A DNA stretch of 64,000 bases from an uncultured Planctomycetales bacterium (GTDB lineage Bacteria > Omnitrophota > Gorgyraeia > Zapsychrales > Fredricksoniimonadaceae), in contig CAZNDZ010000001.1 of assembly GCA_964572155.1 (NCBI GenBank), forward strand, positions 207,300 to 271,299, given 5' to 3'. The translations under genes were made by a program, and so were the position numbers. Numbering within the stretch: position 1 is the stretch's first letter; each line of letters starts with the position of its first letter. Shown one piece after another: positions 1 to 52,785 of the stretch. The notes beneath the pieces were generated by a model, which worked only from the letters and a program-made list of their open reading frames with translations, made no database searches and was not told where the DNA came from.

Positions 1-3000
1 GTTTTTCCGCTGAATTTTCCCCATTTTCTGAAGCGGGAGTACCAGCTGGAACATTATTTCCTGAGACATTTAACGAATTATTGCGTACGGCGCCACTCGA
101 CAAAGTACTGGACGAAACACCTTTAGAACCTCTAGAAACAGTGCTTAACACACTATCCCCAGCAGGCTCTTTGGATAGACCTCGAGCGCTTACACCTTCG
201 GCAGTCGCTGTAGATACAGCTCTTGCACTTAGGCTAGATGCAGAACTTCCTATATAAACTACACCATCTTGTTTGGTACCTGCGGCATTGACCGAAGTCA
301 ATCCTGTCTGAGCTTGTGTTAATGCTGCCACCATAATGTCCTTGGACATTACAGCTCTTGCTTCTGCTACGATGCTACCAGTTTGGACATTAAACGCTGG
401 CATTTCTGCCGCGCTTGCATCTCTTATAAACAATGCTGCAACTACTGTACCTACTACGCGTGCTGCATTTGCTACTTTACTGACTACTCTACTTCTGATG
501 CTGGTGGACGTAGCTTGCGCTAAGCCACTTTCTGCTGTTTTCACAGAAACTACTGTTTTTGCTGCAACTGCTTGTACTGCATTCGCTTGTAAGTTTTCCC
601 CGTTTACTGCAACGTGTGCCGAAGCGATTGAGGAAATCGCTGGCACAGAGCTACGACCCGGGTCATGGCCTTTATCTGTTTTTACTAAAGTATCCCAATT
701 ATGTCTTCCTTCTAAATCTGCTCGCGTAATGATGCGATATGTGGTTTCCCCATAGGCGTTCGTGCCTAGGCCAAATACCATTGGCGGGCTGCCAAATCCT
801 GAGCCAGCGGCTGGTATTGGGACGGTTAAAGGCGTTACAGGTGTCACAGGCGCGGCTGTTGGTGCTACAGGCATGGTGGTGCTGGTATTGGTTGTGCCTG
901 TAGTAGCAGCTTGTGTTGCTGGTGCTGCGGTTGTGGCCGTGACACTGGGTTGTGCATTTGTTGGCTGATATGTAAGTCCAAGCGGCGCTGCTGGGCCAGT
1001 TAAGGCTCTTGGAGTTGCAGAAACAGTTTGGGTTCTTGGCGTTGCCGTTTGTGTTGTTGAAGCAAAGGCTTCTCCTGATGCTCTATGTTGGCTTTCTGGA
1101 GTTGCATTAACTGGTGTTACCGATGGCATTGCTCCTGTGCTAGCCATTGGTGCAGCAGCGGCAGGGCCGACTGGTGTTGGCATGCTTGGTGCCACAGGGC
1201 TTGCTGGAGCTGTTGGCGTGCTGACGGGTGTGCCAACTGGACCTGGTAAAATTGGTGTCTTTAAAAATGCTGGTGTGCCACCGGTACTGTCATCGTCGCT
1301 GTTCGTGTTATTGCTATTGGGCGACGCAGCTTTTTCCTCATCGCTTGGTGCTTTTAAGGATGTACGCAATTCATTGAGCTTGGTTAAGATAACCTTGGCG
1401 ACGGTGAGTAAGAGTGTTGATTCTTTCTCACTTAATTGTTGGATGGAAGCTTGTGTCAAAATGCTTGTGACTAAGCTTTGTATGCCTAACGCGTCTAGTG
1501 CATCCACTGGGCTTACAGCGCCATTGCTGCCGGCGACGATGGCCTTCAGATCTTCTGGTGTTAAATTATTGATCGCGGCTACAGCAACGCTGAATGCTTT
1601 CTCAGATTTCTTTACGTATTGTTGGAAATTGCCTTCTCTATATATGGCTTGCGCATCTTGCCACTTTTGGCCAGCGGAATAGAGCGGTTGTAAGGCGCGG
1701 ACGATATTGTTTTTGCCTTGGGCCTTGGCGGCATTGTAAATGGCCATGACGTTTGGCATGATGTCGCTGGTCTTAACGGTTACATCCGATGTTTCAAGGC
1801 CAATGGTGTTTAAGAACGCGATGACTTGTTCTTTAGCAGCATTCGCAGCTTGTACGTCGACGGATGGGCGTTCATTGTAGTTTGCAATATTTGTTGGCAA
1901 GATGCCGCTAATCAAGCGGGCAGCTTCATTGAACTTATCACCGTAGGCGGTCAATTTATTTAAGCCTTGTGGTGTGCCTTGTAAATCTTGGTCTGCTGGG
2001 ACAACTAAAGCTCTGCGGCTTGCAATCTCACCGTCGTAAGCTTTGATCACGGCGATCAAGTCGCTATTAGTGCCTTGCTTATCGTCTAAGATAGCAATGG
2101 CATCTTGCCTCATACGTTCAGCTGCTTCGATGCTCGCTTCATGCGCACGCCTGAACCATTCTGCAGCGCTTAAGTAAACTTTCAATAATTCCTGCATGGT
2201 GTTGCCATACCAGCCGGCGGATTCTTTAAAGAAGATTGGCGCTAATAATTCTTTTTGCGCTGGTGTTGCGATCTTCATCCACTCATTGATGGCTTTAGTG
2301 GAGTTTTCGTTTCTAAAGAAGGTCAGGATCGCATGCTTATATGAATTGGAACGTTGCAATAATTGGCGATATTCCGTAACAGCCTTTAAGCGTTCGATGT
2401 CGTCGCTGGAACCCGCTAAAGCTTTCACATTGCCAAGATCTGTCAACAAGCTTGCAGGAATACCTGACAAACCTTCGATGTTGGCGATTTCTTTTAAGAT
2501 GTACTCTAAGGAACGACCCACTTCTTGGGCGTCATAGAGAATATATTTATTACCCGTGTCATTGGCGTTACGAATGTTACGGTTGACGCCGTGGGTTAAA
2601 TCTGTTGTTGGCCAGCGTTGGGCATTGACGACGACGACGTCTAAATTACCCTTGAAACTAAATTGTTTAGCGAACATTGGCAGGGCTACATAAACAACGC
2701 CTGCTTGTGTGCCTTCGACAGCTTCGGTGACTAAATCTTTATTGGTGCCATCTAAGTAAACAGCTTTGAGACCATTGCTACCTAAATATGCAGTTAAGTC
2801 TTCGCCGGCTTTAGGACCATCGACTAAAGCTAATAAACGTGTTGAACTGTTTTGGCCTTGTTGAATTTGCCCTGCCAATTCCTTGACCTTAGCAAATTGT
2901 TCGCTCTCTGGAACGGCGATTGGCTCGACGTGTTTAATATGATCTGCCACTTGTTCAAAGACATTGCTTTCTTGGCCGATCCTGACAATTTCACCAACAC

Positions 3001-6000
3001 CCGTCTTGACTTGCAATAACGCTTCTGCGCCAGACAAGGTTGCTGATACGCCTGTCACATTGCCTTCGAAAATTTCCATGACTGGGTTTTCATCGGTCAC
3101 GTGAGATGTAACGACGATGTCTTCGGCCTTTAATTGATCTTCTGGATGTGCGGCATTGTATTTTAATGTTTGGACAATTTGATATGGCAATTGGCCAAAG
3201 ATTTGATCGAACAATGGACGGCCGGTTCTGTCATTTGGAACCAATTGGCGCTTGCCTTGTGAGTTTGTGCCCACGGTTAAACGCTGACCGATATTTTCAA
3301 CCAACCCACGCAAGATGCTTTCAACCAAATGACGATCGCTCTTGGCAAACTTCTTATATAAAGCTTCACTGACTAAGAAATCATTCTCGCCGGTTAAGCT
3401 GTTTGGAACCAATTGTTGATTGTTCCAAACCATTTCTTCTTTATGATCTAAGCCTTCCTTTGTTGGGGCGAACTTAAATTGCACTTCGCCGTTCTTCAAT
3501 AAAGCCGCATAGATCTTTTTAACTTGGACATACAAATCTTTTAAGACAACATTGTCCCCAACGCTTTCTGGCGCGGAACGGATGAACGTGGTTTCAAGCA
3601 AGATAACGTCGTCGATTTCATCAACGATCGTGACGCCAGCTTGTTTAATGTTATTGATACCTGCTAAAACTTCTGGGTTATCCTTAAATTGATTTGGCAA
3701 ATGGCCGCGTGGCGTTAATGAGATAAGCTTTAACGTGTCATTGTCATTTAAGGCATTGGCGACATCGTCTTCTCTGGCCTTGATTTGATCTTTGATCTTA
3801 TCTAAGGCTGTGCCCTTTGGATGTTGTTCATTTTGACTTGCTTGGTGCGCCTTGATCAAGGCGTCCATATTGGCTAACTTGAAGTCTTTACCGATGCGTT
3901 GTCCGACTTGTTCGGCCAAGGCTTGGAAGGTGATGCTGCCTTGAGGCACAATTGGTTCTTGGAAGAACTTGGTTAAATCGTTTTCTTCACGCACTAAGAT
4001 TAACGCTGGGGCGCCTGCGGCCATATAGCTTAAGGCGGCCATGAACTTAGATAATGATTTACCTTGCGCGTTTGGTGCGATCGCGATGTTCATCTTCACA
4101 AGCTCGCGGGCAATCTTGACTTGGGCTTTAAATTTATCCGCATCGAAATTGCTTTCGGCACCTAAGATACTTTCAACCGTATCAACAACTTGATCAAAGG
4201 CAACTAAAACAGCCTTGGTGTCGACAGACATTGCATGATCGCCCATGTTGAAGTTGTTGCGGCCGTTGGTCTTGATGACATACATGCGGGCATCAGCAAC
4301 CTTGATATGTTGTTCTAAAATCAAATTGCTTTCAGATAATGAGACATGTGTTCTGGCATTTTCTTGCTTATCAATGCTGCTAGTACCAGCGCTGATGGTG
4401 ATCATCCAACGATTTAACTTATATTGGCCATTGTTGACAGCGTCTAAAGCTTCACCAAGGTTAGCAAATTGTTGCTTCAAATCTTTCAACGCGACGGCAT
4501 TTTGTAAATGGATTTGATAGATCAACGCTTCATATGGCTTTGATGTGTCGTTACGATCTTGCTTACTCAACGCGTTTACGATATTTCTCTTATTTGATAA
4601 TTCAGGAACCGTGACATTGTCAGCGATGTGCTTGAGCAAACGGGTCATGAACGCTCTTGCATCTTCTGTATCGATGTTTGGCAAGACAATGACAAATTCT
4701 TCGCCGCCATAGCGTGCGACAACGTCGCTGGTGCGGGTGCGGTATTGTAAGGCTTGGGCTACGGCTTTTAAGACATTGTCGCCTGTGCCATGACCAAAGA
4801 CGTCGTTGACAGCCTTGAAATTATCCACATCAACACCGACGATCACATCGCGTTCATTGCCTGCGTTACGCACTTGGGCATTGATGATACGATTGAATGC
4901 TTTTTGTAAACCACCGCGATTAGTCAAGCCCGTTAAATTGTCTCGGAAGTTTTGATTGTCTGCTTGAGCTTCATACAAAGCCTTTGCCGTAATCACGTTG
5001 CCTGGCACGCCAGTGATTTCATATAACGTTTCTACGTCTTGTTCGCTTAAATGTTCAATGCTTTGTTTTTCTGGTGTTAAGAAAATGTATTGTCCTGGGT
5101 TTCCAGATGCTTTGATCATACGAATATCTTCAGCGCTAATGACTTCTTCAATGACTTTATCCTTATAGTAGGATGACAGCATTGGGTAGTTGGCAATGGC
5201 TTCTTTAATCAAGCGCTTCTCGCTGCCCGTGCTATAAGCTAAAACAGCCGTGATATTGTTGTCCTTGGCATAGGTCAATGTATCTGTCACAAGCTTGCCG
5301 ATCATCGCTGAATCAGCGTCGCTGACAATGCGACCTTCTTGGTTCATGGCAGTCTTTGTAACACTCATCGCTTCAGAAAGATTTAAGATGACAGGTGCTG
5401 TTGGTGGCATAACATTTGGAGCTGGCATCATTGGTGTTTCAGGAACGATGGCAGGCTCGCCGTTACCAAAATCATCGCCGAAGCTGTTTGGTGTATCTTG
5501 TTGTTGATCCATCACAGGCACTTGATATTGATCATCACTTGTCGCGGCTTCTGGCATGGTGATTTCTTGAGCGACAGGTTGTGCCACCTTGATCGCTGCT
5601 GGCTTAGCACGTTCGATCATCAATAAGCTCTTCACATCAGCAAAGCCCTTACCTTCGTTTAAGGCAGCGACAATTTCTTGGGCTTCAGGTTGAGCAATCT
5701 TCCAGCGCATGAACCATTGAATGGATGCTTGTGTGGCTTCCGCTTTTTCAGCTGCGTTCATTGCAGCATCCATACGTTCTAAATGTAAGGCCCTGTAAGC
5801 ATTAAATGTTTGGGCATCGACCGCTAAGATTGAATTCTCAGATGCTTGTTTCGTTGTGCTTTCAAAACCAAGTTGTGCAACAACCGCTTGCACAATTGCT
5901 TCGGTTTGATTGGCAATGTCTGCTGGCATTTCTTTAACATCTTCGGAATCATTATCGCCAATTAAGACAACCCCGATGATTTGTTCTAAGACACGTTGAC

Positions 6001-9000
6001 GATCGGTATATTGTAATTTTTCTAAGCCCTTACCCATCGCAACCAACGATGCGACAATCGCTTGCTTATTATTCCAAGCCAATGGCGCAAATTGTTCTCT
6101 TAAATACGTTCTTAATTCAAACAAAGCCGTAAAATCAACATCTTGAGCAAAGTTATCTGCTTCGGTGAAATCTTTACCGAATAACTTCAAGGTGCGGTGA
6201 TTGTAAAATTCTTGAACCTTCATCGCCGCATCGGTCATCTTACCTAACTTGTATTCAACCCATGTCTTATCATCCGCCCATTTATCCGTGATACCACCTG
6301 ACGAGGTAACGACGGAAGAACCGACTTGGGCTTTTTCTTTGCGGACTGGTTGAGCGCGATTATTGTGGCGATCTAAGTTTGCTTGTGCGCGATCGAAAGT
6401 TGCTAAGACACGTGCGATAGATGCATTGTCTAAAATTTGAGCACGAACTTGTTCTCTTACCGTTTTAGCTGTTTGTGCAAAATCAGGACCAATTTTCATC
6501 AAAAGATTAAAATAGCTCTTATCCGAGATTGTAGGATCAGCTCTCTTAACTTCTGCACGTAAATTCTTAAATTCACGAGGAGCAATTTGTGCGTAATCTT
6601 TTTGTGGAGCTGCTTGCTTTTCTGATCGCAATCTAACGGATTCTGCTAATAATGTGTCGTTGTGAACGCTAGCTGCTTTTCTAGCTACGTTGACAATTGC
6701 AGGAAGAGTTTCAAGCGCGTGCTTCTTTGCATTTTCCATTAAGCTACCAAAGACCGGAGCTAATTGCGCTGGCTTAACTTTCCAGACATTGACATTAGGT
6801 TGAATTGTTCCCTTAAGAATATTTTCAAGTGATGCATTGATTTGTGCATTCTTGGTGAAGTTATATGCATCTACCACGACGATAGGTTGATTTCTAGCAT
6901 CTAAGGTAACCTTATAGTCAATGCTTTGAACACCAGCTTGGCTTTCTTCGCTAGATTCTGGCACAACGTAATTAGCTTCATATTGATTGGTCTTAGGAAC
7001 ATAGACTACATCAACGGCTTTATCATTGAACTTTAACTGCGTAATAGTCGTTTGGTTTAATTCCGCATATGGCGTTAACAATGGCATGATGTTGGCAATA
7101 TTGTTTGATCTAGCGCTTCTAATTTGCTCAACAATGATGTTTAATCTGCTGCTATCGTTGATGCCCATATTTCTAAAGATAACCTTTAACTTATCTAAGG
7201 ATGTGCTTCTTAAAACTTTTTCATCAATACCTTTGATGGTCACAACTTCTGGCATGATCATGGCTTGGTCAACGTTTAGTTTAGCTAAAGTCTTACCAAT
7301 GACTTCTTGATCAATTCCTTCTGCAGACTTGAGAACCTTATATAGTGACGCTAATTGTTCTGGCGTGAAGACTAAATTACCGGACACCTTGTTAAACATC
7401 TTACGATTCTTGACCACTATAGGATGATTTGTGTCTAACTTATAAGCAACAGGCTTAACATCGCCTGAGGTTGTGATTTCATAGGTTACTTTTTGAATAC
7501 CGGCTTTTCCTTCATCACCATCAACCGGCACATTATGTTCCGCAAAGTATGCTTTTTTGTTTACATCAAATGTTGCTGCTTCAACAACTCCATCTAATGT
7601 CACGCTCTTAATAAAATCATTGTTTTCTAAAGCAGGATATCCAGCCAAAACCGTACTAATAGCTTCTGGGCCCTTAGTGCGCACATTTTGAATTTGTTCG
7701 AAAATGTTATTTGCAATCCATAAATCCAAACCAGTTGCTAATATAGCCCTCTCTAATTGCTTTGGTGTGGCATTCTTAATGAATGCTACGTTAGTTACTT
7801 TTTCTCTATTAATTTCAGGAGCCATTGCTGAATCAACGTTCGCTTTTGGAGCCTTGAATGCATTGCTGATGATGCCGGCAAAAGTGACACGTTTTGTTTC
7901 CGAAATATCTGGCTTGACCGTAGCAGCATCTTCGATGCCTAATAAATTCTTCAACGCAGCCATGGCTTGGTTGGCGGTGGATTGTTCTGTATATGCTGGC
8001 AATGTAGTGACTAAAGCTCTGAATATTTCTTTACGTCGTTTTTCTGTGGCAGACTTAAATTCATTGTTAGTTTTTAATGAATCGGTCAGTTGTTTAATAG
8101 CCTTAACATTGGCCGTTAATTCGTCTTGATCAGAAATAATTCTTGCTACCTTTAATGTTAACGGAATAGCTATTTTGCTATCGATATCTGTGTCTGAGTA
8201 GACAACGCTGTTAGCGAAGATTTCTTGGCTTGCTTCTATTAATACAGCTTTAAGTAAGCTTGGGCGAGCGGCTAATTCAGAGAGAACTAATTTATTAAAT
8301 GCTTTTGTATTTTCTTTTGTTGGGTTACTGCGGGTTGCATCCCATAAATCCATCACTTCGTCTCTTTGACGAATTTCCTTGATGTGCTGTGTGATGATTT
8401 GCTTTTCATCATTCGAAAATTTCTTGCCCGTCATCATTTGTAACTTTTCAATGATGCCTTCTTCACGATATGTTACAAACACATTGTCTTTAGCAAATTG
8501 TTCGATTAATTTCTGATCGTTTAAGAGTTGTGCTGCCCATTTCTGGATGCCATTTTTTACTCTTAATTCAACAAGGGCTGGGAAGCTTGCTTCTGCTTTA
8601 AGTCTTTCAACAGGATTATTTATACCTGAAACCACTTTGATGGCTTTTTCAATCGCTTGACGATCATTTTCATTAACCTTCAAGATGGCTGGTACTGATG
8701 TTTGATCAATTACCTTGATTTCTGGTTTAAGTGCTCTTAAATCATTCATCGCTGTTTGCGCGAAGATCTTGCTGATTTCTTTGAGATCCTTTGTTGGAAC
8801 TTTTTCAACTAAATGCAACGAGGTCTTCATTGCGATTAATTCTTTGATTTCGTCTTTCTTATTTGTTGCCTTAAGCGCAGCGATCACTTGATCGTCTGTT
8901 GCTTTTGGCATAACACCTAATTTAATGCGAATATCAACATCATCGATAATTGCTTTATAAATACCCGTATCTTTTGCCAATGTTAAATATCGACCCAACA

Positions 9001-12000
9001 TATCTTTTTGTGCCTTAGCCGCGGCATTATGTTCTGCCAATGTCTTTGGTTGATTTGGCGTTGTATCTTCAAAGTTTGGTTTTGTATCAGCGAACTTAGG
9101 TTCAGTTGTCGTACGTTCTTTTGGTTCTTGCTTGTTGCGTACTCTGGCTGTCCATGCAGTAACAGCTAACATTAAACCTGCAACGGCGAGGGTAATAGGC
9201 AATGTGTGTTCTTTAATTGCAGCACCGATCTTGGCACGAACTGATTGGCTGCGTTCTTTAATTTCCGCTGCTCTGTCTAAAATACGTTGGCTTGCTTCTT
9301 TAGTAGCTAATAATGTTTTATCGCCTTGCTCGATGACTCCCTTAGATGATTCTTTGATTGCCTGAGCAACAGCTTCTGTTTTCTCAATAACGTTTCCAAT
9401 GAATGTTGGTTCTGGTTTAGAGATATCATACACGGCGACATTGGCATTCCCGCTTGCTGGCACAACTGCGGTTTTTCCATCTACAATTGTTTGTGAATTA
9501 CCTGCAAGACCTGCCGCCAAAGCAATAGCGCCGATCTGCAAGATTCTTTGTGTTCTGTTTTTATCGTCTGTACCAGGCTTTACAGCTGGTTGTTTAGCAT
9601 CAGCCATCATTTGAGCTTGAGGCTTTTCAACTTCAATCTTTTGACCTAATTTTTCTTCTAGAGCAGCAATGACCGCTTGTTTGCCTTCTTCTGTAATGGC
9701 ATTGCGATACAAGTTCAATCTGGTTCTATAGAACAGCTGATCTTTTTTATCTGGAGCGCTAACGCTTAAAACTTCAACATCATTTAATGTTAATGGACCT
9801 TGTGTTGTCGTTGCTTCAAGTTGAGCAGGGACTGTTTCTGCGATGCGATCAACAACAACTGGTTTGAATCTTTCAACTACTTCAACAGGAAACCCTTTAA
9901 GTATAGCCAAGTTAGTTAAAGCTCTTGCAGCAATTTCATGACTTATACGATTACGTTCTCCGAGATTCTTGATCTTTGTTAAATTGTTATAAATTAAGTT
10001 GGCCACATTATTTTTGGTGTCTTTATCCGCAGGGATCTTGCTTGCTTCACTATAAAGCTTATCGTTGCTAAATGCGTCTGCATGTTCAACGATCGCCATC
10101 ATGATTTCTTTAGTTCCCTTATCAGCGGAATTAAATGCTGACAGTAAACCTTGAACCACATTCTCTTGAATTGGTTTTCCACCATAACCAGAAGTAATTT
10201 GAATAGCTCTTGTTTCTTGAGCCTTAGGGAGTCTAAATGCATAAATTAAACCTGCAGCATGCTCCACATCTCGTTCAGTTACCATCGCATTATCTTTTGA
10301 AGATCTTAAAGGCGTTGTTAAATCAATGTCTTCCCAAGCAGCAAAAGCTGTATTTTCTTCGGTTGGTCTTGTCTTTAAGGTATTTAATATGTTTACTGAA
10401 TTAGGTGTTTTGCCTAAGCGTACTGCAACGTTATCTAAAAATTTGATTTGCTCTTCACGATTTGGTAATCGTGCCAAATTACTTTTAATTAATTTTCCTG
10501 TCGGTAAAGCTTCAATGTCCGCAACTGTAAACGTTTGTTCTTGGATAACTTTCTCATAGATACGGGCAACCTTACCACCCAATGCTTTTTCTGCAGCTTC
10601 CGGAGAGATAGCAATTTGTCTTTTTGCATTGCGTACCGTGAATGCATCTAAGCCATTGTCCAACCCAAATTTCTCTGCCAAGAATGTTACTTGTTCCTTG
10701 AAGCTTACCTTCTCGACAAACTTAATTCTTTGTTCGCTATTTGAAGCAGGAGTATTAATATTTACAACCCCCACAGATGAAGGAACAACTGCATTAAGGA
10801 CATTTTCTTCATCATTAGAATCATTTAACACCGCCGCCATCGCAGCATTGCTGGTTTGCATGATCTTGATATTTGGATATGCCGCTTTAACAATTTTATC
10901 AAATGCCGCTGGGCTGATTTCTGTGCCGTTGACGACAATGCTTTGAATCACTGGTTGCAACGTGCCCTTAACTTCATAATTAACGGCGGTGACGCCTAAT
11001 TCTTTTTGGGTTGGGGTTGGCGCCATCTTCATGATGGTTGCTTTGACTGTTTCTTCGCTTAAGAGCGCATCGCCTGCTTTTGCTTCATATGTCTTTGGAG
11101 TAAACGCCGTCGCAGATTGTGGTTGAACTGTTGTTTGGCGGATGGCTGCAACGACGGGTTTTAGACCGGCATCTTTTTGCATCTTTTGATTTAAAGCGTT
11201 TCGCTCTACGGCATCTTGATGATTCTTAACGAAGACTTGTTCAATCTCTTTCCATTTAGCGGCGTATTCTGGTTGGATTAAAGGCAATACAGCTTGCAAT
11301 TCTTTTACAGATCTCTTGTTTTCTTGATACGCACGAACACGTTCTTGCATCGTTGCAACATCAGCTAACCATGCTGGCAATTCACGTTCTATTAATTGTG
11401 TATCATTTGGATTGTATCCTTGTAATACTAAGAAATTGCGCGCAACGTCCATTAAATTAACATCTTGATCTTTCACTGACTTGCCTTGTGCGTCTACCAT
11501 TGGAACAACAGCTTTGGCTTGCAATTCTTTAATAGATTTTTTATTAGCTGCTTCATTTTGTGGATCTACAGCTTCAAAGCTATGAATCATTTCGTGGGCA
11601 AAGACAATCTGAACATTTTTTACATCTGGATTCTCTGCATTTACATGAGCAGCGAATAACGCCGCAGGTTTTTCAACAGTCCATTTGCCATCTGTCTCTT
11701 TGATCAGACCATTGTTAACAAGCAAGCTTGTGAAATTCTTTTCTTGGCGGGTTAATTCATGATTGCCGCGTTTGGCATCATTTAAATATGCAACAACTGT
11801 CTGCGTTGTTAAGTTTTCACCAGCAAAACCAACCGTTCCTGCTAATGCTGCAGGGACGATGTCGCCAGCTTCATATTCATTGCCTTGGCCTTCTTGATGT
11901 ACTTCCGCCCTGCTAAACATCTGTCTACCGATACGGTCATCGACGATAAACCCATAAATATTATCAGCGATACGATACGCTTGAATTGCTTTAGCACCCT

Positions 12001-43712: not shown

Positions 43713-44033
43713 TTAATTAATCCCTGCGTTTGTGACTGTATTTGTAAATGTTTGTGACGTTTCACTAACAATGGTTTGTATCCCCGCCGCTGTTTCATAA
43801 ATTTCTTTATTACTGCCCATTGAAACCATGGAATTTGACGTATCTAAATGCGATGATCCCGCACTATAATCTTGCTCAGAATTTTCTTGTGCTGCTAATT
43901 GGTCTGCCGTTGCCTTAATAATGCTTTGCGTTCCACGTTTAAAAGAGGGCGCCATAAAATACACCGCTGTCATCACCACGCCGACGATGATAATATATTC
44001 AACCAAAGATTGTCCCTGCGCATTATATTTCAT
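43713..44033 (-). CDS. Flp-family pilin-like protein 7 (106 aa)
   Basis: MKYNAQGQSLVEYIIIVGVVMTAVYF. Confidence 0.6.
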   Translation of the reverse strand: MKYNAQGQSLVEYIIIVGVVMTAVYFMAPSFKRGTQSIIKATADQLAAQENSEQDYSAGSSHLDTSNSMVSMGSNKEIYETAAGIQTIVSETSQTFTNTVTNAGIN

Positions 44034-44440
44034 TTAGCAGCCTCTGCTGGTGGCAACTGCGCACTGTCCGACCCTATTTGAGTGCTTTGTGCAAAATATT
44101 TTCCCCATCGCCCGTTTTCATCAAGAACCTTTTTATCCACACTATCGCGTCGCACCTCTGCTTCTGACTGGCCATAATATGGCTCATACTCATACGCTAT
44201 TTTTTGCGTTGCTGGATCAACCTTGGCTGCTCCTAAACAATCAACGCCACCGGCCGTTGCCTGCGTGCAGGCTTGGGTCGCCATATCAACCATATAAATT
44301 TTTCCATCACGATGCCTTGCTTGAAGGCCGCGCTGCACATAAAGTGTCATGGCTGAAATGCCTGCCACCACTACAAAAAACAAAAGCACGTATTCGCTGG
44401 TAACCATCTGCCCTTTGCGTGCGTGCTTGAGTTTCATCAT
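44030..44440 (-). CDS. Flp-family pilin-like protein 6 (136 aa)
   Basis: MMKLKHARKGQMVTSEYVLLFFVVVAGISAM; the C-terminal part contains 3 Cys. Confidence 0.55.
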   Translation of the reverse strand: MMKLKHARKGQMVTSEYVLLFFVVVAGISAMTLYVQRGLQARHRDGKIYMVDMATQACTQATAGGVDCLGAAKVDPATQKIAYEYEPYYGQSEAEVRRDSVDKKVLDENGRWGKYFAQSTQIGSDSAQLPPAEAAK

Positions 44441-44543
44441 ATCATCTCTAAATTTGCTTGAATATTATAAGCCCTAAAGGGGGGATATCGCTATCCCCCC
44501 TTATAAGACTTAAGACACCTCTTAACAAAAACACCTTAAGAGA

Positions 44544-44876
44544 CTATTCCCACTTCTCTCTGGAGGTATTAATGATTTGCGATGTTTCTGTTGTTAGATT
44601 GCTTTCAGTACCATTAATTACCGTCTTTGAAACACCTTGACCAGCGGCGCCACCAAATGTTTCGATGGTGTTGCTGTGCGTTGATGTTATTTTAACGGCC
44701 TTGGTATTGTCTGGTGAATATTGATCACCGATATCATCCGCAGATGACTTGACCTTACCTTGGATACCACGTTTGAGGTATGTTTGCACCGCGAGCAATG
44801 CGCCGATGATGATGATGATCAAAATCGCGTATTCAAGCGTGCTTTGAGCTTTCTTATTATTAAAGTGTTTAAACAT
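44544..44876 (-). CDS. Flp-family pilin-like protein 5 (110 aa)
   Basis: MFKHFNNKKAQSTLEYAILIIIIIGALLAV. A strong SD (AAGGAGGAG) precedes the ATG. Confidence 0.65.
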   Translation of the reverse strand: MFKHFNNKKAQSTLEYAILIIIIIGALLAVQTYLKRGIQGKVKSSADDIGDQYSPDNTKAVKITSTHSNTIETFGGAAGQGVSKTVINGTESNLTTETSQIINTSREKWE

Positions 44877-44893
44877 TACAACTCCTCCTTGTA

Positions 44894-45262
44894 TTAGAGC
44901 CCAGTTGGCATGTCGCCTGTACCAGCTGTAACATTATTTGAATATGTGGTTGATTGTTCACCTTGTTTTAAACGAGAATTTGCACTATCAGCTGCAACAA
45001 CACCTTCATCTAATATCTTTTTCTCTGTAGAATCTTTTTGAACAGAATAATTAGATTGTTGGTAATAAGGTTCATATTGCACTGATTTTCCTAATTGGCC
45101 TGTTGAATTAGCCATATAGGTACTGGCGTCACGCACACGGGCTTGCAATGCACGTTGTGCATATTGTTGCATCGCCACGATACCTGCCACAACCAAGGCG
45201 ATTAACAACGCATATTCTGCGGTGTTTTGAGCTTTCTTATTCTTTAATAAATGCTTAAACAT
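44894..45262 (-). CDS. Flp-family pilin-like protein 4 (122 aa)
   Basis: MFKHLLKNKKAQNTAEYALLIALVVAGIVAM; SD AAGGAGGAAATA upstream. Confidence 0.65.
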   Translation of the reverse strand: MFKHLLKNKKAQNTAEYALLIALVVAGIVAMQQYAQRALQARVRDASTYMANSTGQLGKSVQYEPYYQQSNYSVQKDSTEKKILDEGVVAADSANSRLKQGEQSTTYSNNVTAGTGDMPTGL

Positions 45263-45285
45263 ATATTTCCTCCTTATATGGGAAA

Positions 45286-45588
45286 TTAACCTTCACAATT
45301 ATTAGTTGCTGGATTGAATCTTTGATTTCCAGTACACAAACCTTGATTGGCTTGATTGCCAAAAATATTTGTATTAACTGTTGTTGTTGTAAATGTATCT
45401 TGTGCCGTAACCAATTTACCTGCCATGCTGTTAGCTTGTTGGGTTACTTGATCCATAGACGCATTCATTCTTTGCTTGAATGGGCTCGCATCTGAAACTA
45501 AGAAGGCGATTAAGATGACAATCACCCCTGTGACCAAGACGATATATTCTACCGTGCTCTGGCCTTTTTGACGATTTCTTAAAAACAT
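45286..45588 (-). CDS. Flp-family pilin-like protein 3 (100 aa)
   Basis: MFLRNRQKGQSTVEYIVLVTGVIVILIAFLV; SD AGGAGGAACA upstream; 2 Cys near the C-terminus. Confidence 0.65.
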   Translation of the reverse strand: MFLRNRQKGQSTVEYIVLVTGVIVILIAFLVSDASPFKQRMNASMDQVTQQANSMAGKLVTAQDTFTTTTVNTNIFGNQANQGLCTGNQRFNPATNNCEG

Positions 45589-45621
45589 ATGTTCCTCCTG
45601 AAAGTAAGTGGGTTGCTTTGT

Positions 45622-45813
45622 TTAAGGCGTGTTGGCCAAACGCGCTGCCGCGTTGGTCATGCTCACGCTTAATGTGTCCATCGTATTCGTCATCCGACGC
45701 TGAAACAGTGAACCATTCGTTGCCATATAGGCAATTGCCACCATCACAACAGCCGTGACGAGGATAATATACTCGACAGTACTTTGAGCTTTATCCTTTG
45801 ATGGCTTAAACAT
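45622..45813 (-). CDS. flp: Flp pilin (63 aa), candidate major pilin
   Basis: MFKPSKDKAQSTVEYIILVTAVVMVAIAYMA: canonical Flp size and motif. Strong SD AAAGGAGAGGGG upstream. Confidence 0.7.
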   Translation of the reverse strand: MFKPSKDKAQSTVEYIILVTAVVMVAIAYMATNGSLFQRRMTNTMDTLSVSMTNAAARLANTP

Positions 45814-45845
45814 GTGCTCCCCTCTCCTTTTAAGTTTATTAAATA

Positions 45846-45995
45846 TTAATTGGCGAATTCTTGTGTGACAGCTTTTTGGGTCGCTTGCGCGGAACGAAAT
45901 ACATAGGTACTCATCGCTGCAACAGCAGCGGTGATAACAGCCACGACAATGGCATATTCGATCAGGTTTTGTCCACTGGACTTGTGTAGTTGCAT
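45846..45995 (-). CDS. flp: Flp pilin (~49 aa from the internal ATG; 68 aa if from the track start 46052), candidate major pilin
   Basis: MQLHKSSGQNLIEYAIVVAVITAAVAAMSTYVF... An AAAGG lies ~11 nt upstream of ATG 45995. First gene of the pilin run. Confidence 0.6.
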   Translation of the reverse strand: MQLHKSSGQNLIEYAIVVAVITAAVAAMSTYVFRSAQATQKAVTQEFAN

Positions 45996-46120
45996 CGTCG
46001 TGTGACCTTTGTATTTGTTAATGCTGTCCTGGCCCTTAGTTTGTCCCAACAACTCAAACTAATCAAGAACTCTTGGTCGCGGGCCTTCATTTATATTAAA
46101 TCCCCATAGGGGATAGAATT

Positions 46121-47988: not shown

Positions 47989-50175
47989 TTATGGATTAAA
48001 AATATTCTTAGAAAGTGGGATGCCGCGTGTTTGGAAGTCTTCGAAAATTTTTGGCACATACCCTGTGGGCGTATATTCACCAACAACAACCCCTTCGGCA
48101 TTGATGCCGCGTTGACGGAAGATGAAAATGTCTTTCATTTCAGGAAGGCCGTCGACCATGTTACCTGTAAGCTCCGTGATCGCGGTGATCTTACGCGTCC
48201 CGTCGGAGAAACGGTTAATTTGAATGACAATATTGATCGCAGATGCCGCCATTTCATAGATCGCGCGCAATGGCAATTCAATCCCTGAGAGCAGCACCAT
48301 GGAGGTCACACGAGACATAACGTCGCGTGGTGTGTTGGCGTGAAGCGTTGTCAACGAACCATCGTGACCTGTGTTCATCGCCTGCAACATGTCTAAAACT
48401 TCCGGTCCACGACACTCACCGATAATAATGCGGTCTGGGCGCATACGTAACGTGTTAATAAATAACTCACGGATGGTGATCTTACCACGACCTTCAATGT
48501 TCGCTGGTCTTGCTTCAAGGCGCGCCCAATGTGATTTGGTTAAACGCAATTCCGCCGCGTCTTCGATTGTAATGATGCGTTCATTATCAGGAATAAATTG
48601 TGAAACAATGTTGAGCAGCGTTGTCTTACCAGCGCCGGTACCACCAGAGACAATAATATTCTTACGCCCAATAACGCACGCATTCATAAACTCACCCATG
48701 GCAGGCGTCAGCGAATGAAAACGATTAAGCAAATCATCGATCGTATATTTTTCTTGAGAGAATTTACGAATGGTGATCATGGGGCCGCCCAACGACAACG
48801 GCGGAATGATGGCATTGATACGGCTTCCATCAGGCAAACGCGCATCCACCATCGGCGTTGATTCATCAACCCGACGACCTAAAGGTGCTAAAATACGATC
48901 AATCGTTGCACGCACCTGATCGTTGGAAATAAAACGCTTATTCGTGAGCAGCAATTTACCTTTTTTCTCAACAAAGATTTCATCCTTATTGTTAACCATG
49001 ATGTCATTGATATCGACATCCGCTAAGAAATCTTCCAATGGCCCCAAACCTAAGGCCTCGTTGACAATTTCACGCACAAGTTTAGAACGTTCTTCTTGAG
49101 ATGAAATAAAACTACCCGATGCATCGGTCATCAAATCGGTTACAATAACTTCGGCTGCCTTGCGAATATTTGCAGCTTGCGCAGGATCTGAGAGCGCTTC
49201 CGGCGATATCTTTTGCAAATTCATGCGCTCAACCAACTTTTGATGGATTAAGCGCTTTAATTTAATAACTTCGTCTTCTTCTTTTTTAAAATAAGTCCCG
49301 CCACCAGAGCCCTGCTTAATACCAAATTTTTCCCAGAACTCGGCATCTTTCTTATTCTTAGGGTCTGCCGAGCGAACCTTAACAACGTCGGAGACCTGCA
49401 CAAAGATGTCTTCATCTTGTAATTTATCCGCCATGCCAAAAAACAGCTCGGAGACTTTTGCCTTTGGACTGTCTAAAACACATGGAATACCGCGATTAAG
49501 CGCTGAACCAACGGTTTTACCGTCGGATGGGATTAACGCAAAAATATCGCAAGGCAATGCTGTTTTCACTTCTTGCCATGCAACACCCCCGCGACTTTCA
49601 GCACGATTTAATATGATTTTAATCATACGCAGCGGATAATGCAGTGCTTGCAACATCTCAAGCGTTGACTTGGCTTGATACACCGCCAAGACATCCGGCG
49701 TGGTTGGCAAGAAAATCAAACTAGATTGATCAAGAACGCTAATCAAGACTTCATTAAATGTGCCGCCGCCATCGACGATGATATATTCATATTGTAACAT
49801 GGCGCGTTTTAAAAATATGCGCACATTGTCGCCTGTCACCAAACCTGCTTGCCGTAAATGATTAATGCCAGATAAGAAATCAACGCCGCTAACATGCTTA
49901 ACCACAAAACGACGCATAAAATCTGGGTTGTCATCTTTGGCCACTTCAGCGAGCAAGTCTGCTAAACAAAATGGTGCGGAAATATTTAAGGAACGGGCAA
50001 GATCTTGACCCGCTTGTAAATTCATATCAAGCAACAATACTTTCTTAGCCTTCATGGCAAGCGCGGCAGCAATGTTTGCGCTAATAAAGGTCTTACCGAC
50101 CCCGCCCTTATTGGAAAATATGGTTATGATTTTACAAGACATACTTCTCTTTGGATCATTTTGCCTGGTAGACAA
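47989..50175 (-). CDS. cpaF: Fused Tad secretion ATPases: N-terminal CpaE/TadZ-like ParA/MinD ATPase plus C-terminal CpaF/TadA VirB11-family ATPase (728 aa)
   Basis: N-part: KIITIFSNKGGVGKTFISANIAAALAMKAKKVLLLDMNLQ (deviant Walker A) ...YIIVDGG... C-part: ...IIVSGGTGAGKTTLLNIVSQFIPDNERIITIEDAAELRL...PDRIIIGECRG...NTGHDGSLTTLHAN... (CpaF/TadA Walker A and B, Asp and His boxes). One ORF, no internal stop. Confidence 0.8.
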   Translation of the reverse strand: MSTRQNDPKRSMSCKIITIFSNKGGVGKTFISANIAAALAMKAKKVLLLDMNLQAGQDLARSLNISAPFCLADLLAEVAKDDNPDFMRRFVVKHVSGVDFLSGINHLRQAGLVTGDNVRIFLKRAMLQYEYIIVDGGGTFNEVLISVLDQSSLIFLPTTPDVLAVYQAKSTLEMLQALHYPLRMIKIILNRAESRGGVAWQEVKTALPCDIFALIPSDGKTVGSALNRGIPCVLDSPKAKVSELFFGMADKLQDEDIFVQVSDVVKVRSADPKNKKDAEFWEKFGIKQGSGGGTYFKKEEDEVIKLKRLIHQKLVERMNLQKISPEALSDPAQAANIRKAAEVIVTDLMTDASGSFISSQEERSKLVREIVNEALGLGPLEDFLADVDINDIMVNNKDEIFVEKKGKLLLTNKRFISNDQVRATIDRILAPLGRRVDESTPMVDARLPDGSRINAIIPPLSLGGPMITIRKFSQEKYTIDDLLNRFHSLTPAMGEFMNACVIGRKNIIVSGGTGAGKTTLLNIVSQFIPDNERIITIEDAAELRLTKSHWARLEARPANIEGRGKITIRELFINTLRMRPDRIIIGECRGPEVLDMLQAMNTGHDGSLTTLHANTPRDVMSRVTSMVLLSGIELPLRAIYEMAASAINIVIQINRFSDGTRKITAITELTGNMVDGLPEMKDIFIFRQRGINAEGVVVGEYTPTGYVPKIFEDFQTRGIPLSKNIFNP

Positions 50176-51910
50176 TAGGAATGGTTACATTTAAATCCGA
50201 CGCTTGCATGTCTTTTGAAAATGGAGCGTAAGGCGCCGCGATTTTGGCAGCATTTAACGCATCGTCGTCGAAAGCTTGATGCCCCGAAGACTGCACCACG
50301 TTAGCTGCAATCAATGTCCCATCTTTTTGAATATTTAGTCTTAATTTAACTGTGCCCTGCCATTTATTTTTCAATGCTTCCAGTGGATATGAAATATTTT
50401 GCGATATCTTCACTTGAATATCTTGCATATATTTCTGAACGGTCGCAATCGGCTCTTGAACAGCTACTTCTTTTTTAATCTGCTCTTCTAAGATCGCCTT
50501 GGGCTTCTGCGCCGGCATTTCAACGCGTTTAACCTTTGCTGGCACAACAGCTGGCTCATCTTGTGCTGGCATGGTTGTAACATTACCCATATTAGGATTT
50601 GGATCAACCGGCTCACGCTTATAATTATTTATTTTCTCTGCTTCATCAACAAAATCATTTAATTCCTTCGTTGGTATTACAAATTGATCCTTGGCATATT
50701 TTTTATTATGCACAATAACTGGCGTTAAGGTGATCACAAGTTCCTTGGCTTCATCTGGTGCTTGCTTAGAAGAGCTTCTAAACATCATCCCAACAACGGG
50801 AATCTTTCCTATAAATGGAACGCTTTTCTTTTGATCACTGTCTGTATAACGAATCAACCCCGCCATAACCACCGTTTGTTTATCATCCAACATCAATTGC
50901 GTTGTAGCGTTGCGTGTTTTATAAGCGACACCGTTTGTCGATGTTGCGGCAACAGGAAATGTTGTATCAATGTCGCTGACTTGCAAGTTCATCAACACAT
51001 CGATCTTGCCTTCTTTAATTGTTGGTGTAACTGTAACGGTTAAACCATATTGCTTGAAGGTGACATTGGTTTGTGTGCTGGTCGATGACGCAGATGTTGT
51101 GGTCGACTGGATTGGTACTTCCCCGCCAACATTAATGGTGGCTTCTTTACCGCTGGTTACCAACATGCGTGGGCGTGATAATGTGCGCGCTTTACCTTGA
51201 GACACTAAAAGATTAATGGTGTTGATGATGCTGGTGGTGCGATTAAATTGCCCTAACTTAAACCAGTTGGGAGACCCACCGGTTGTTGGGTTGCCTGATT
51301 CCGCATAAGTTAATGTTGTGCCGCCGCCGCTATTTGTCCAATCAAATCCTAACTTCTTATCAAGTGTTGAGGATAATTCCGTGATCTGCATATCAATCTG
51401 AATTAATTCCTGCGCTTCATCTTCCTTGCACAAATTAATCACTTGTTCAGAAAATGGTTCGAGCACTTTATCTAAACGGGATTTTTGATCTTTATTAACG
51501 TTGCCCGAAAGAACCACTTTGCCTTCCACATAATTAGCATCATAAACAATTGTTGTAATACCAGCATCTTTCAATAGCGTTTCAATGCGTGCTTTAATCC
51601 TTGCTAAGTCATCATTAGCGACGTTGACGGAATAAACCTTCTTGCCACCTTTATCCCAAACAAAAAGGATCGTGTGCCCCATGCGCCTTGCCACAACAGA
51701 AACTTCATTATCATTGGCGTCAGCAATGTCAGCAATGTCAGGATCAGTTACAGAAACGCGAGTTAAACCATCGACCTTAACGTTCTGAACGTCGCCTAGG
51801 ATCATGTTAATATTATGGTCTTCTTGGGCAATGGACATTGTCGCTTGTGACCCTATGAAAAGAAGTCCCAGCGCAACGAAAGATAATTTAATACGGGAGA
51901 TGCGCATCAA
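50156..51910 (-). CDS. cpaC: Tad secretin (CpaC/RcpA) with a C-terminal TonB-C-like domain extension
   Basis: Signal peptide MMRISRIKLSFVALGLLFIGSQATMSIAQ. Secretin C-domain ...VPFIGKIPVVGMMFRSSSKQAPDEAKELVITLTPVIV. The last ~110 aa (...ISYPLEALKNKWQGTVKLRLNIQKDGTLIAANVVQSSGHQAFDDDALNAAKIAAPYAPF...) match the TonB_C signature YP..A...eGtV.v.f.I..dG.v....V..SSG...LD.aA..Av...p..P. Confidence 0.75.
   Translation of the reverse strand: MMRISRIKLSFVALGLLFIGSQATMSIAQEDHNINMILGDVQNVKVDGLTRVSVTDPDIADIADANDNEVSVVARRMGHTILFVWDKGGKKVYSVNVANDDLARIKARIETLLKDAGITTIVYDANYVEGKVVLSGNVNKDQKSRLDKVLEPFSEQVINLCKEDEAQELIQIDMQITELSSTLDKKLGFDWTNSGGGTTLTYAESGNPTTGGSPNWFKLGQFNRTTSIINTINLLVSQGKARTLSRPRMLVTSGKEATINVGGEVPIQSTTTSASSTSTQTNVTFKQYGLTVTVTPTIKEGKIDVLMNLQVSDIDTTFPVAATSTNGVAYKTRNATTQLMLDDKQTVVMAGLIRYTDSDQKKSVPFIGKIPVVGMMFRSSSKQAPDEAKELVITLTPVIVHNKKYAKDQFVIPTKELNDFVDEAEKINNYKREPVDPNPNMGNVTTMPAQDEPAVVPAKVKRVEMPAQKPKAILEEQIKKEVAVQEPIATVQKYMQDIQVKISQNISYPLEALKNKWQGTVKLRLNIQKDGTLIAANVVQSSGHQAFDDDALNAAKIAAPYAPFSKDMQASDLNVTIPIVYQAK
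50159..50500 (-). other. TonB-C-like domain fused to the secretin C-terminus
   Basis: See above; coordinates derived from residue positions ~470-584. Confidence 0.5.
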
Positions 51911-52785
51911 AGCTCCTTGCCGCCTCTAAAGATTTGTATATCTGGTTTAGCGGGCTTGTCGTCGTCTTGATTAATGATGCCTTTTAAATCGTCCGGTAAA
52001 TCAATGTCTGCGCCTTGATTTTGCAAGACATAATCTGCCAATGTTTTCCATGTGGTTGTCTTGACCATTTGGCGTTCGGTTTCTTGAGGAGAACGCAATG
52101 CAAATTCAAGCGTACCATTCTTATCCGCAAAAATTAAATAACCTGCTTCTTGAGGATCAACCGCTAAGGTCACCTTGATCGCCGGAGAATTTTGTTGTTC
52201 TTCATAACGTGTGCCTGTTTCATCTAAATTGGTGTTAACCGCCAAGACTTCTAGGCCTTGAAAGACCATGGCCGTAATGGTTTTTTGTTTGCGTTCGCCA
52301 TCTTTGCCTAATCGGCCTTCAGGAACATTGAGCCTTGCGATGATGTCAACCATATCCCCTGGATTAAGCAAACCACCGACGGCTGCCAAAGAATCGATCT
52401 TAACGGTAACCGCGCGCTTGCCTTGTGGCGTCTTTAACGCTAAAGAAGGTTTGGATTTCTTAACAGGTTGTCCACCTGCATTAGCTGCTTGTTGTTGCTG
52501 TAATTTCGTTTGAAGCTCAGCAATTTGCTTTTGAACCACTTGGGCTTGTTCAGTGCGCACTGCTTGGATTTGTTGCTGTAAAATCGCCGCGCGTTGATCT
52601 GCTTGCGCTTGCATTTCAGCAACTATTTTCTTTTGCTTAGCTTCATATTCTTCCCGACGCTCAATATCGTGGCGCTCAATGGTGCTGTTGACAGCAAAAC
52701 CAATCACGGCTGTTGCCGCGATACCCAAGACCACCGCGACGATCAGCAATAGAATTTGTTTTTTATTATTATCCATAGTGCGCAA
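51907..52785 (-). CDS. cpaB: Flp pilus assembly protein CpaB/RcpC (TM anchor, Q-rich coiled coil, SAF/RcpC domain)
   Basis: MRTMDNNKKQILLLIVAVVLGIAATAVIGF; a coiled coil with a QQQQ run; ...RAVTVKIDSLAAVGGLLNPGDMVDIIARL... Overlaps the secretin start (ATGA). Confidence 0.7.
   Translation of the reverse strand: MRTMDNNKKQILLLIVAVVLGIAATAVIGFAVNSTIERHDIERREEYEAKQKKIVAEMQAQADQRAAILQQQIQAVRTEQAQVVQKQIAELQTKLQQQQAANAGGQPVKKSKPSLALKTPQGKRAVTVKIDSLAAVGGLLNPGDMVDIIARLNVPEGRLGKDGERKQKTITAMVFQGLEVLAVNTNLDETGTRYEEQQNSPAIKVTLAVDPQEAGYLIFADKNGTLEFALRSPQETERQMVKTTTWKTLADYVLQNQGADIDLPDDLKGIINQDDDKPAKPDIQIFRGGKEL

Follow-up and report, generated by a model that had tools for sequence, protein, structure and literature searches.

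A probably vertically inherited Tad pilus locus and Archaeovorin-like giant gene beside the replication origin of an Omnitrophota bacterium

Why would a bacterium keep the gene for a giant membrane protein next to a pilus locus, and both of them close to the origin of replication? The question is raised by a 64,000-nt stretch of a contig assembled from a metagenome (positions 207,300 to 271,299 of CAZNDZ010000001.1, GenBank assembly GCA_964572155.1), which is referred to here, at its full length, as the window. An earlier note, made from the letters alone, described in it an "attachment island" consisting of a giant membrane protein, a repeat-bearing secreted protein and a Tad pilus, and all three components are present in the places that were given for them. 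Taken as a whole, the window is very probably a vertically inherited, origin-proximal block of an Omnitrophota chromosome, made up of the genes from dnaA to gyrA, a few housekeeping genes, a gene for a peptidyl-prolyl isomerase (PPIase), a Tad pilus locus and an Archaeovorin-type giant gene. An origin-proximal architecture of Tad locus and giant gene has been in the literature on Omnitrophota, an uncultured and probably predatory phylum, since 2022; the window is an expected, fairly divergent example of it and leaves the current picture of Omnitrophota giants unchanged. What it does is sharpen the pattern. Across the phylum, TadC is directly followed by a giant gene whose product opens with a membrane anchor and a C39 peptidase with an invariant triad, and from dnaA through to the Tad ATPase the genes stay in the same order down to 71% GyrB identity.

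A block beside the origin

How general is the pairing of pilus locus and giant gene? A scan with an alignment of the giant protein's N-terminal module (alignment A1), covering one genome per GTDB species, gave 77 loci, almost all of them titled Omnitrophota. The closest is 61% identical to the window in this module, and the range is 31–61%. The proteins of the window were compared by tblastn with these loci, 58 of which have 2.5 kb or more of DNA upstream. TadB and TadC lie directly upstream of the homologous C39 open reading frame (ORF) in 51 of the 58, with a median gap of ~1 kb, and the TadB and TadC proteins of related loci are 45–66% identical to those of the window; the other seven loci are without TadC at that junction. 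The pairing is therefore not a coincidence of one genome, and the comparative synteny that the earlier note had proposed as a check supports it. The recurring order in relatives is pilins, 463-aa protein, 1158-aa protein, small pilin, TadB, TadC and C39 ORF. The two large minor-pilin candidates and the small pilin are found in this same order in 34 of the 46 loci whose upstream DNA reaches 9 kb or more. The downstream ORFs are large as well: 73 of the 77 homologous C39 ORFs are open to the end of the DNA examined, which amounts to more than 3,700 aa where a full 10 kb of downstream DNA is available.

Two relatives carry the comparison to dnaA itself. OY759724.1 (GyrB 71% identical) and JACQCF010000010.1 (81%) both keep the gene order from dnaA to the Tad genes. 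Both have dnaA-dnaN-DciA-gyrB-gyrA, the carbon-nitrogen hydrolase (CN_hydrolase), the malate/lactate dehydrogenase (MDH), Rotamase_2, RcpC and the secretin fused to TonB_C; the glutathione S-transferase (GST) is present only in JACQCF010000010.1, and the TadZ/TadA fusion comes next in OY759724.1. The giant gene starts 26–30 kb from gyrB in both. On these gene orders, the Tad-giant pairing beside the origin is a conserved feature of the phylum, rather than the "island" of a single genome. A horizontally acquired island was also considered, and rejected: the block has the same chromosomal position in distant relatives, and its GC content and skew are unremarkable. As a separate observation, the origin-proximal synteny is unusually stable for GyrB identities of 71–81%, and almost all of the genes are on the leading strand.

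To which lineage does the window belong? The named-organism hits in a GyrB search, at 84–70% identity, are all Candidatus Omnitrophota or Omnitrophica, bar one labelled "Elusimicrobia" that looks mislabelled. The first 1,183 residues of the giant protein match 16 proteins, nearly all of them partial Omnitrophota proteins with a C39 domain. Going by GyrB and the giant's N-terminal module, the source organism is a member of Candidatus Omnitrophota, which had been offered as a hypothesis; its GyrB neighbours are Omnitrophota, and the refuting condition set in the earlier note, housekeeping genes of a free-living and well-studied lineage, does not hold. At 1.34 Mb (1,344,502 bp), the length of the source contig is compatible with a small genome and is no proof of one. 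Two of the terms applied to the system are not supported. It was called compact, and the giant ORF runs off the window, such that its length is a lower bound only; it was called experimentally tractable, and the organism is known from metagenome assemblies only and cannot be cultured.

The position of the origin is indicated by several features. The dnaA-dnaN spacer contains two perfect DnaA boxes (Table 1), and GC skew is negative over the entire window. A 12.5-kb Logan contig (L001) is from the same organism, its GyrB being 100% identical to that of the window, and reaches past dnaA; the organism is also present in SRR10036058, SRR10036059 and SRR10036065. On this contig, GC skew switches sign in the region of dnaA, and the yidC/dnaA and dnaA-dnaN spacers have clusters of DnaA boxes (11 matches vs 3.25 expected). 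Measured from the dnaA-dnaN spacer, the Tad locus starts at ~10 kb and the giant gene at ~32 kb, which agrees with the claim that the components are next to the origin, and transcription of both runs the same way as the replication fork. Two more perfect DnaA-box 9-mers occur on the plus strand within coding sequence, at 4821-4829, where the giant gene encodes its GGDEF region, and at 44133-44141 in a pilin gene; these may be chance matches, 0.56 being expected across the window.

The map of the window was made by Pfam and NCBIfam profile searches of its proteins. Every sizeable gene is on the minus strand except the one at 30930-32099 and that for tRNA-Glu; the tRNA is the sole Rfam match over the window. 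From right to left, the order is dnaA, dnaN, the DciA-like gene, gyrB, gyrA, tRNA-Glu (plus strand), GST, carbon-nitrogen hydrolase, malate/lactate dehydrogenase and the PpiC/SurA-like gene. The Tad locus continues the series with RcpC/CpaB, the secretin with TonB_C, the TadZ-TadA fusion, the DUF192 gene, the 493-aa gene, seven pilins, the 463-aa and 1158-aa genes, the small pilin, TadB and TadC, and the left end holds the 1352-aa gene, the AAA_14/DUF4143 gene (plus strand) and the giant ORF. The three named components are co-oriented, and in this respect the description of them as lying head to tail stands; the series is interrupted by the opposite-strand AAA_14 gene between the giant gene and the 1352-aa gene.

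The giant protein

What does the giant ORF encode? Its frame of 30.5 kb without a stop codon is not attainable by chance. Pfam tiling of all 10,169 available residues in 240-aa pieces yields three solid domains only, Peptidase_C39, ResIII and GGDEF, and 97% of the available length is without a recognisable domain. A crude hydropathy scan finds an N-terminal hydrophobic anchor and about seven further segments that resemble transmembrane (TM) helices. In chunked self-BLAST, a weak pair at aa 7555-7923 is the sole internal repeat. By these features of its sequence, the product would be an Archaeovorin-like giant membrane protein.

The N-terminus is where the protein is best conserved. Alignment A1, with 16 sequences, defines a conserved unit of ~390 aa that consists of the anchor and the peptidase. 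The anchor reads FIPDQVSWAFNYNP in this alignment, with the invariant columns F55...Q59, W62, F64, Y66 and N67, and AlphaFold2 models it as a helix. The Cys, His and Asp of the C39 peptidase are invariant in the 16 sequences (C161, H246 and D262 of A1, which are residues 178, 263 and 279 of the ORF). The C39 core is modelled with a predicted local distance difference test (pLDDT) score of 80–96, and Foldseek matches the model to PCAT1, the ComA peptidase domain (TM-score 0.69), LahT150 (0.68) and the C39-like domain of HlyB.

The second domain, termed here the DEAH module, is by its motifs and profile match a real ATPase lobe of the superfamily 2 (SF2)/ResIII type. The motif LNMGGGKT is located 95 residues upstream of DEAH (residue 4557), and TGSPG follows further along. 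The Pfam ResIII match spans 16817-17239 on the minus strand, around residues 4424–4564; on an isolated segment of 201 aa it has an E-value of 3e-5 and scores 24.4 bits against a cut-off of 22.5. The possibility that DEAH is a chance tetrapeptide was rejected because of the P-loop upstream and the ResIII match on a short segment. Degenerate strings resembling motifs V and VI follow TGSPG, as judged by eye only, and Pfam Helicase_C has no match for a second lobe. The order of the motifs is, again by eye, collinear with NBD1-PPXD of SecA; Pfam SecA_DEAD has no match, and BLASTP gives no significant similarity between the ATPase and E. coli SecA. No relatives of the ATPase region came from a metagenome scan. 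The module was missed by Pfam searches with pieces of 1000 and 5000 aa and by a PDB sequence search. Thus, profile searches with pieces of at least 1,000 aa overlooked a domain that pieces of 200–240 aa caught, and the domain maps that have been published for giant proteins may have gaps for this reason.

The third domain, GGDEF, matches the diguanylate cyclases of the PDB with E=1e-17. The active-site motif, GGEEF, is at ORF residue 8601, and an RxxD inhibitory site (RTSD) is present at the canonical spacing, as judged by comparison with PleD. On sequence, the domain is real and looks intact. The GGDEF and DEAH modules had been thought to be additions to what was described for such proteins. 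Both are real, but they are not new, as GGDEF and divergent SecA-DEAD domains were reported in Omnitrophota giants by West-Roberts 2023 (10.1101/2023.11.21.568195).

The pilus locus, its insertions and a secreted family

The Tad/Flp (type IVc) pilus locus occupies 16.6 kb (36226-52785, minus strand; Table 1). In the TadZ-TadA fusion, the ParA-like part is a CbiA/AAA_31/ParA domain at residues 14–218, and the best NCBIfam model is the TadA-family TIGR03819 (E=2e-95), whose score of 320 bits is below the equivalog cut-off of 373. The fusion of secretin and TonB_C is also found in the relatives L082 and L083, and that of TadZ and TadA in L082. The eight pilin genes encode proteins of about 100–136 aa in which the motif [KR]x[GA]Q/[SNM]xxE[YF] (the slash marks the cleavage site) is followed by a hydrophobic helix; on this signature, they are genes for Flp-type prepilins. 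The cleavage context [GA]Q/S..EY also fits the Pfam Class III signal peptide model PF04021, a model of the archaeal type. The 463-aa and 1158-aa proteins, with N-termini of the same kind, are probably large minor pilins similar to TadE/G. There is no TadD gene in the locus.

Table 1. Features of the window, listed from right to left
Feature	Position	Strand	Basis or remark
dnaA (cut by the window edge), dnaN, DciA-like gene, gyrB, gyrA	56376..64000	-	Pfam/NCBIfam
Two perfect DnaA boxes in the dnaA-dnaN spacer	62737-62745, 62800-62808		
Glutathione S-transferase, carbon-nitrogen hydrolase, malate/lactate dehydrogenase; housekeeping genes between gyrA and the Tad locus	53816..56236	-	Same order in relatives L082 and L083
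PpiC/SurA-like peptidyl-prolyl isomerase (Rotamase_2)	52806..53735	-	Pfam; adjoins the locus in L082 and L083 too
RcpC/CpaB	51907..52785	-	Pfam RcpC E=1e-25; NCBIfam pilus_cpaB 101 bits vs cut-off 71
Secretin (CpaC/RcpA type, T2SS-T3SS_pil_N) fused to TonB_C	50156..51910	-	Pfam Secretin 3e-39, TonB_C 7e-18, pil_N 3e-11
Fusion of TadZ/CpaE-like ParA ATPase and TadA/CpaF, 728 aa	47989..50175	-	Pfam T2SSE E=1.7e-56
DUF192 protein	47645-47986	-	Pfam
493-aa protein of unknown function	46160-47641	-	
Seven tandem Flp-like pilin genes	43383..46017	-	Weak Pfam Class_IIIsignal hits; motif scan; homologues in related loci
463-aa protein, same class III signal as the pilins	42047-43438	-	No Pfam match
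1158-aa protein, similar pilin-like hydrophobic N-terminus	38366-41842	-	No Pfam match
Eighth Flp-like pilin gene	38040-38375	-	N-terminal motif
TadB, inner-membrane platform	37164-38027	-	Pfam T2SSF, E=1e-18 and 1e-15 for the TadB/TadC pair
TadC, inner-membrane platform	36226-37164	-	Pfam T2SSF, as for TadB
1352-aa secreted protein: signal peptide, ~360-aa N-domain ending YFSGG, two repeats, ~70-aa conserved C-terminal tail	32104..36162	-	
AAA_14/DUF4143 ATPase gene, between the 1352-aa gene and the giant gene	30930..32099	+	Pfam E=7e-25 and 2.5e-26
Giant ORF, at least 10,169 codons, open at the left window edge; probable start ATG 30457	2..30508	-	Six-frame scan
Sigma-70-like promoter match TTGCCA-17-TATAAT, 11/12 positions, just upstream of the giant ATG	30474..30502	-	Consensus scan only, no evidence of function
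N-terminal signal-anchor LWIRSVALLVLTVFIPDQVSWAF, the family's most conserved stretch	30266..30334	-	Hydropathy, alignment A1
C39-type (double-glycine) cysteine peptidase domain	29558..30016	-	Pfam Peptidase_C39 E=6e-9 to 8e-11
SF2-type ATPase module (DEAH module)	15359..17239	-	Motif I LNMGGGKT, motif II DEAH, TGSPG
GGDEF diguanylate cyclase domain, residues 8522-8638	4595..4945	-	Pfam E=1e-29 to 1.5e-32

Two genes lie between TadC and the giant gene in the window. Homologues of the AAA_14 gene occur at or adjoining the TadC/giant junction, in either orientation, in six other loci (L009, L018, L019, L022, L048 and L067), and this recurrence may reflect a hotspot for insertions of a mobile or defence type. 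An AAA_14/DUF4143 gene is also found directly after the secretin gene in L083 (21415-22442). The 1352-aa protein has a homologue at the junction in only two of the 77 relatives (L032 and, in part, L004), and it loses the place that it had been given as a conserved third component. We infer that the 1352-aa gene is a lineage-specific insertion and that it and the AAA_14 gene are later arrivals, not parts of the machine.

What, then, is the 1352-aa protein? Taken as the product of 32104-36162, the repeat-bearing secreted protein does have a Sec-type signal peptide (MKRIAPILIFCFLLTFIQPVKA/DS, with the slash before the residues that follow it) and two tandem repeats. These are of ~340–385 aa (aa 564-948 vs 916-1289), are 45–58% identical with E-values down to 3e-74 in chunked BLAST, and each end in DD[RK]AML; Tandem Repeats Finder does not see them. 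The protein has no Pfam, NCBIfam or PDB match. Its N-terminal ~400 residues nevertheless define a very large family that is without a Pfam or NCBIfam model, with 7,082 cluster representatives at E<=1e-3 (50%-identity clusters). A word-indexed search gave 1,517 hits; the named ones are Omnitrophota bar one with a Minisyncoccia label, and there are several paralogues per genome. The N-domain has more than 70 invariant columns (alignment A2) and ends in an invariant double glycine, [YF]F[ST]GG; the broader pattern [RK][KRQ][YFW]F[STAG]GG is found there in 256 of 262 sampled members. Its AlphaFold2 model has a predicted TM-score (pTM) of 0.61 and is without a fold match in the PDB. The cargo that follows the GG varies, and includes HAD, methyltransferase, glycosyltransferase, NUDIX, kinase, HEAT and sugar-nucleotide enzymes. 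A C-terminal tail of ~70 aa, GGID[LF]...IKFH.DPAML.QLQNAPGF.PVIINI, is common to 166 of the 262 members.

A second motif, D-x-A-M, occurs 531 times in the variable parts of 235 family members, against 18.5 expected. It is placed between Pfam domains in the examples checked, and at each repeat end of the 1352-aa protein. The giant protein of the window has 10 such sites vs 1.4 expected, at residues 2914–8757 (about nt 4230-21770, minus strand); each of its two weak repeats begins with one, and another two are located on either side of the GGDEF domain. Over the first ~3,700 residues, the 77 giant homologues show no enrichment (30 observed vs 28 expected), and the idea that DxAM is a general feature of giant proteins was rejected, as the enrichment among giants is found only in this one. 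A role as internal ribosome-binding or start sites was also rejected, since the codons vary and there is no sequence upstream that resembles a Shine-Dalgarno. A link of the family with Tad/giant loci, or with an exporter of its own, was rejected as well: homologues of Tad, the C39 giant or other window genes were found within 8 kb of family members in none of 80 metagenomic loci (L085–L164), no Pfam family occurs in more than four of 96 neighbours, and members are dispersed in genomes.

Could the two motifs be punctuation? A leader-like domain that ends in GG and is encoded beside a double-glycine peptidase suggests processing. The giant and the secreted family might then be modular "polyproteins" that are cut at GG and DxAM motifs, with the anchored C39 peptidase as the processing enzyme. 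We regard this as a long shot. If it were true, the giant gene would be a maturation hub for a large arsenal of secreted enzymes, and not only an adhesin. The GG/DxAM lead is the sole item here that is possibly new.

Function, alternatives and known systems

What are the functional implications of the arrangement? The conserved junction, together with the conserved block, argues that pilus and giant protein are parts of one apparatus and that the origin-proximal position and orientation are under selection. A plausible reason for such selection is that a transcription unit of more than 30 kb is kept co-directional with replication. In the scheme that we favor, the Tad machine would build Flp pili through the secretin, and the TonB_C extension of the secretin may tie the machine to the cell wall, to judge from TonB C-terminal domains elsewhere. 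Through the pilus, the cell would make contact with others. Beside the TadB/TadC platform, the giant protein would be threaded into the inner membrane, with its C39 peptidase facing the periplasm, going by the positive-inside rule only, and with its ATPase and GGDEF domains facing the cytoplasm. These last two must be cytoplasmic because they need ATP and GTP. Cyclic di-GMP (c-di-GMP) made by the GGDEF domain could feed back on the activity of the pilus or on the giant itself; pilZ genes, as well as carbohydrate uptake genes, have been reported downstream of such giants (West-Roberts 2023). The C39 peptidase might process the giant itself or secreted partners. A role in attachment and predation would be borrowed, by analogy, from the proteomics of V. 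archaeovorus in the literature.

Several observations weigh against this scheme. The topology of the giant protein rests on a crude hydropathy scan, and in that scan the ATPase and the GGDEF domain are separated by a single strong TM candidate, which is hard to reconcile with a cytoplasmic location of both. The domains by which published Archaeovorins are defined (glycosyl hydrolase, glycosyltransferase, methyltransferase, NUDIX and SecA_DEAD) are undetected by Pfam in the available 10,169 residues, although the C-terminal part beyond the window may have them. A prepilin peptidase (TadV/CpaA, A24) has no match among the ORFs of the window, and its gene may be elsewhere in the genome. Finally, the opposite-strand AAA_14 gene and the promoter-like site suggest that the giant gene has a promoter of its own here and is transcribed apart from the Tad operon, from which the insertions divide it.

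Could the giant instead be mostly extracellular, as a surface coat, an adhesin or a cell-wall-degrading protein that is exported or displayed via the Tad machine or one like the type II secretion system (T2SS)? This is both the "attachment island" of the earlier note and the published predation model, and it would account for the conserved adjacency to a secretin and pilus machine and for an N-terminal anchor and peptidase that resemble an export and processing module. In addition, most annotated domains of giants are predicted to be outside the cell (West-Roberts 2023), and three-fold more giant-ORF peptides in attached V. archaeovorus cells are cited in Seymour 2023 (PMC10066038). For the protein of the window we nonetheless consider it unlikely, if by no means far-fetched. 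The GGDEF cyclase and the SF2 ATPase need cytoplasmic GTP and ATP, and the picture of the whole protein as an adhesin therefore fails for those parts; no adhesin, dockerin, glycoside hydrolase or repeat domains were detected in the available residues; and about half of long Omnitrophota proteins are classed as membrane-anchored with a cytoplasmic bulk (Nielsen & Lui 2026).

It is also possible to read the adjacency as having no functional link, with the giant gene and the Tad locus merely sharing a slowly rearranging origin region in small, strand-biased genomes. Synteny is generally high, the dnaA block is collinear in distant relatives and includes the unrelated mdh and nitrilase-family genes, and insertions and a promoter-like site part the giant gene from TadC in the window. 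Such an explanation is improbable given that the junction is kept in 51 of 58 loci at just 31–61% identity in the N-terminal module, that the seven loci without TadC there imply that rearrangement does occur, and that published surveys find secretion or pilus genes by 13 of the 14 longest giants (Nielsen & Lui 2026). An artefact, whether an assembly chimera or a decayed non-coding region, is effectively refuted. The exact giant protein is not returned by protein search, and its length is nearly all free of recognisable domains, but chance does not produce its stop-free frame, there is no repetitive sequence to mislead an assembler, an independent assembly gives the neighboring genes exactly, 73 homologous ORFs in other genomes are equally open, and GC skew and strand are uniform across the region.

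Canonical Tad/Flp (Cpa) pili, as in Aggregatibacter and Caulobacter, have CpaB/RcpC, CpaC/RcpA with pil_N, CpaE/TadZ, CpaF/TadA, TadB/TadC and Flp pilins with glutamate and tyrosine after the cleavage site. The locus of the window has all of these components. It differs in that TadZ and TadA are fused, the secretin carries TonB_C, and there are eight pilin paralogues with an archaeal-looking [GA]Q/S context. Further differences are that the minor-pilin candidates are of 463 and 1158 aa, that the prepilin peptidase and TadD are not in the locus, and that a giant gene stands at the end of the operon.

The C39 domain has the same fold as the isolated peptidase domains of PCAT1, ComA and LahT (Foldseek TM-scores of 0.63–0.71) and the same Cys/His/Asp triad. 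Unlike the C39 domains of ABC transporters, it is not fused to a transporter, has its own TM anchor at the start of the giant, and is probably periplasm-facing instead of cytoplasmic. A more distant comparison is with LapA/LapG/LapD of Pseudomonas, in which a giant adhesin is released by a periplasmic cysteine protease under the control of c-di-GMP. The likeness is an analogy only, and lies in a very large envelope protein, an envelope cysteine protease and c-di-GMP signalling. There is no sequence relationship, the protease and cyclase of the window lie within the giant itself, and export is by a route other than type I secretion.

How does the window compare with what has been described for Omnitrophota? 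That the literature pairs giant genes with Tad pili was rightly stated, and three surveys agree on it. Tad complexes and giant ORFs of more than 20 kb are recurrent "symbiosis" traits, and such ORFs are found in 77 of 116 Velamenicoccia genomes (Seymour 2023, PMC10066038). Secretion or pilus genes lie beside the longest giants, TonB_C is among the flanking genes, and C39 architectures form a cluster of 24 proteins (Nielsen & Lui 2026). The third survey, West-Roberts 2023, has a search threshold of genes larger than 90 kb. An individual precedent is V. archaeovorus LiM (Kizina 2022, via Seymour 2023, PMC10066038), which is of the same phylum and, as described there, has its Tad complex in the first 30 kb (12,382-29,832 of CP019384.1), a giant multi-TM ORF and a proposed role of these when the cell meets and attacks a larger host. 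Its giant of 39,678 aa is described as having glycosyl hydrolase, glycosyltransferase and peptidase domains; compared by this description, the glycosyl hydrolase, glycosyltransferase and peptidase domains of that protein are a difference, being undetected in the 10,169 residues available here.

The Archaeovorins (West-Roberts 2023) are giants with an N-terminal C39 domain near signal peptides, numerous TM segments, GGDEF and divergent SecA DEAD or SecA preprotein-binding domains. Upstream they have a conserved secretion locus of more than 10 genes, with homologues of gspD/E/F, rcpC, small class III signal genes and Rotamase_2. In complete genomes, the dnaA origin is ~100 kb from the giant gene, and the genes of a replichore are almost all on one strand. 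The giant of the window differs from these proteins in that its ATPase matches ResIII and not SecA_DEAD, in that its available residues are without the class-defining enzyme domains (glycosyltransferase, methyltransferase, glycosyl hydrolase, peptidase and NUDIX), and in that its gene starts 32 kb from dnaA, not ~100 kb, with two genes inserted at the junction. The likenesses extend over the whole arrangement. Both have an N-terminal C39 domain by a signal or anchor, a GGDEF domain and a P-loop ATPase of DEAD/DEAH type; in both, the giant gene is preceded by a secretion or pilus locus with a secretin, GspE/F-type proteins, RcpC, class III signal genes and Rotamase_2; and in both, it lies near the dnaA origin and is co-oriented with replication.

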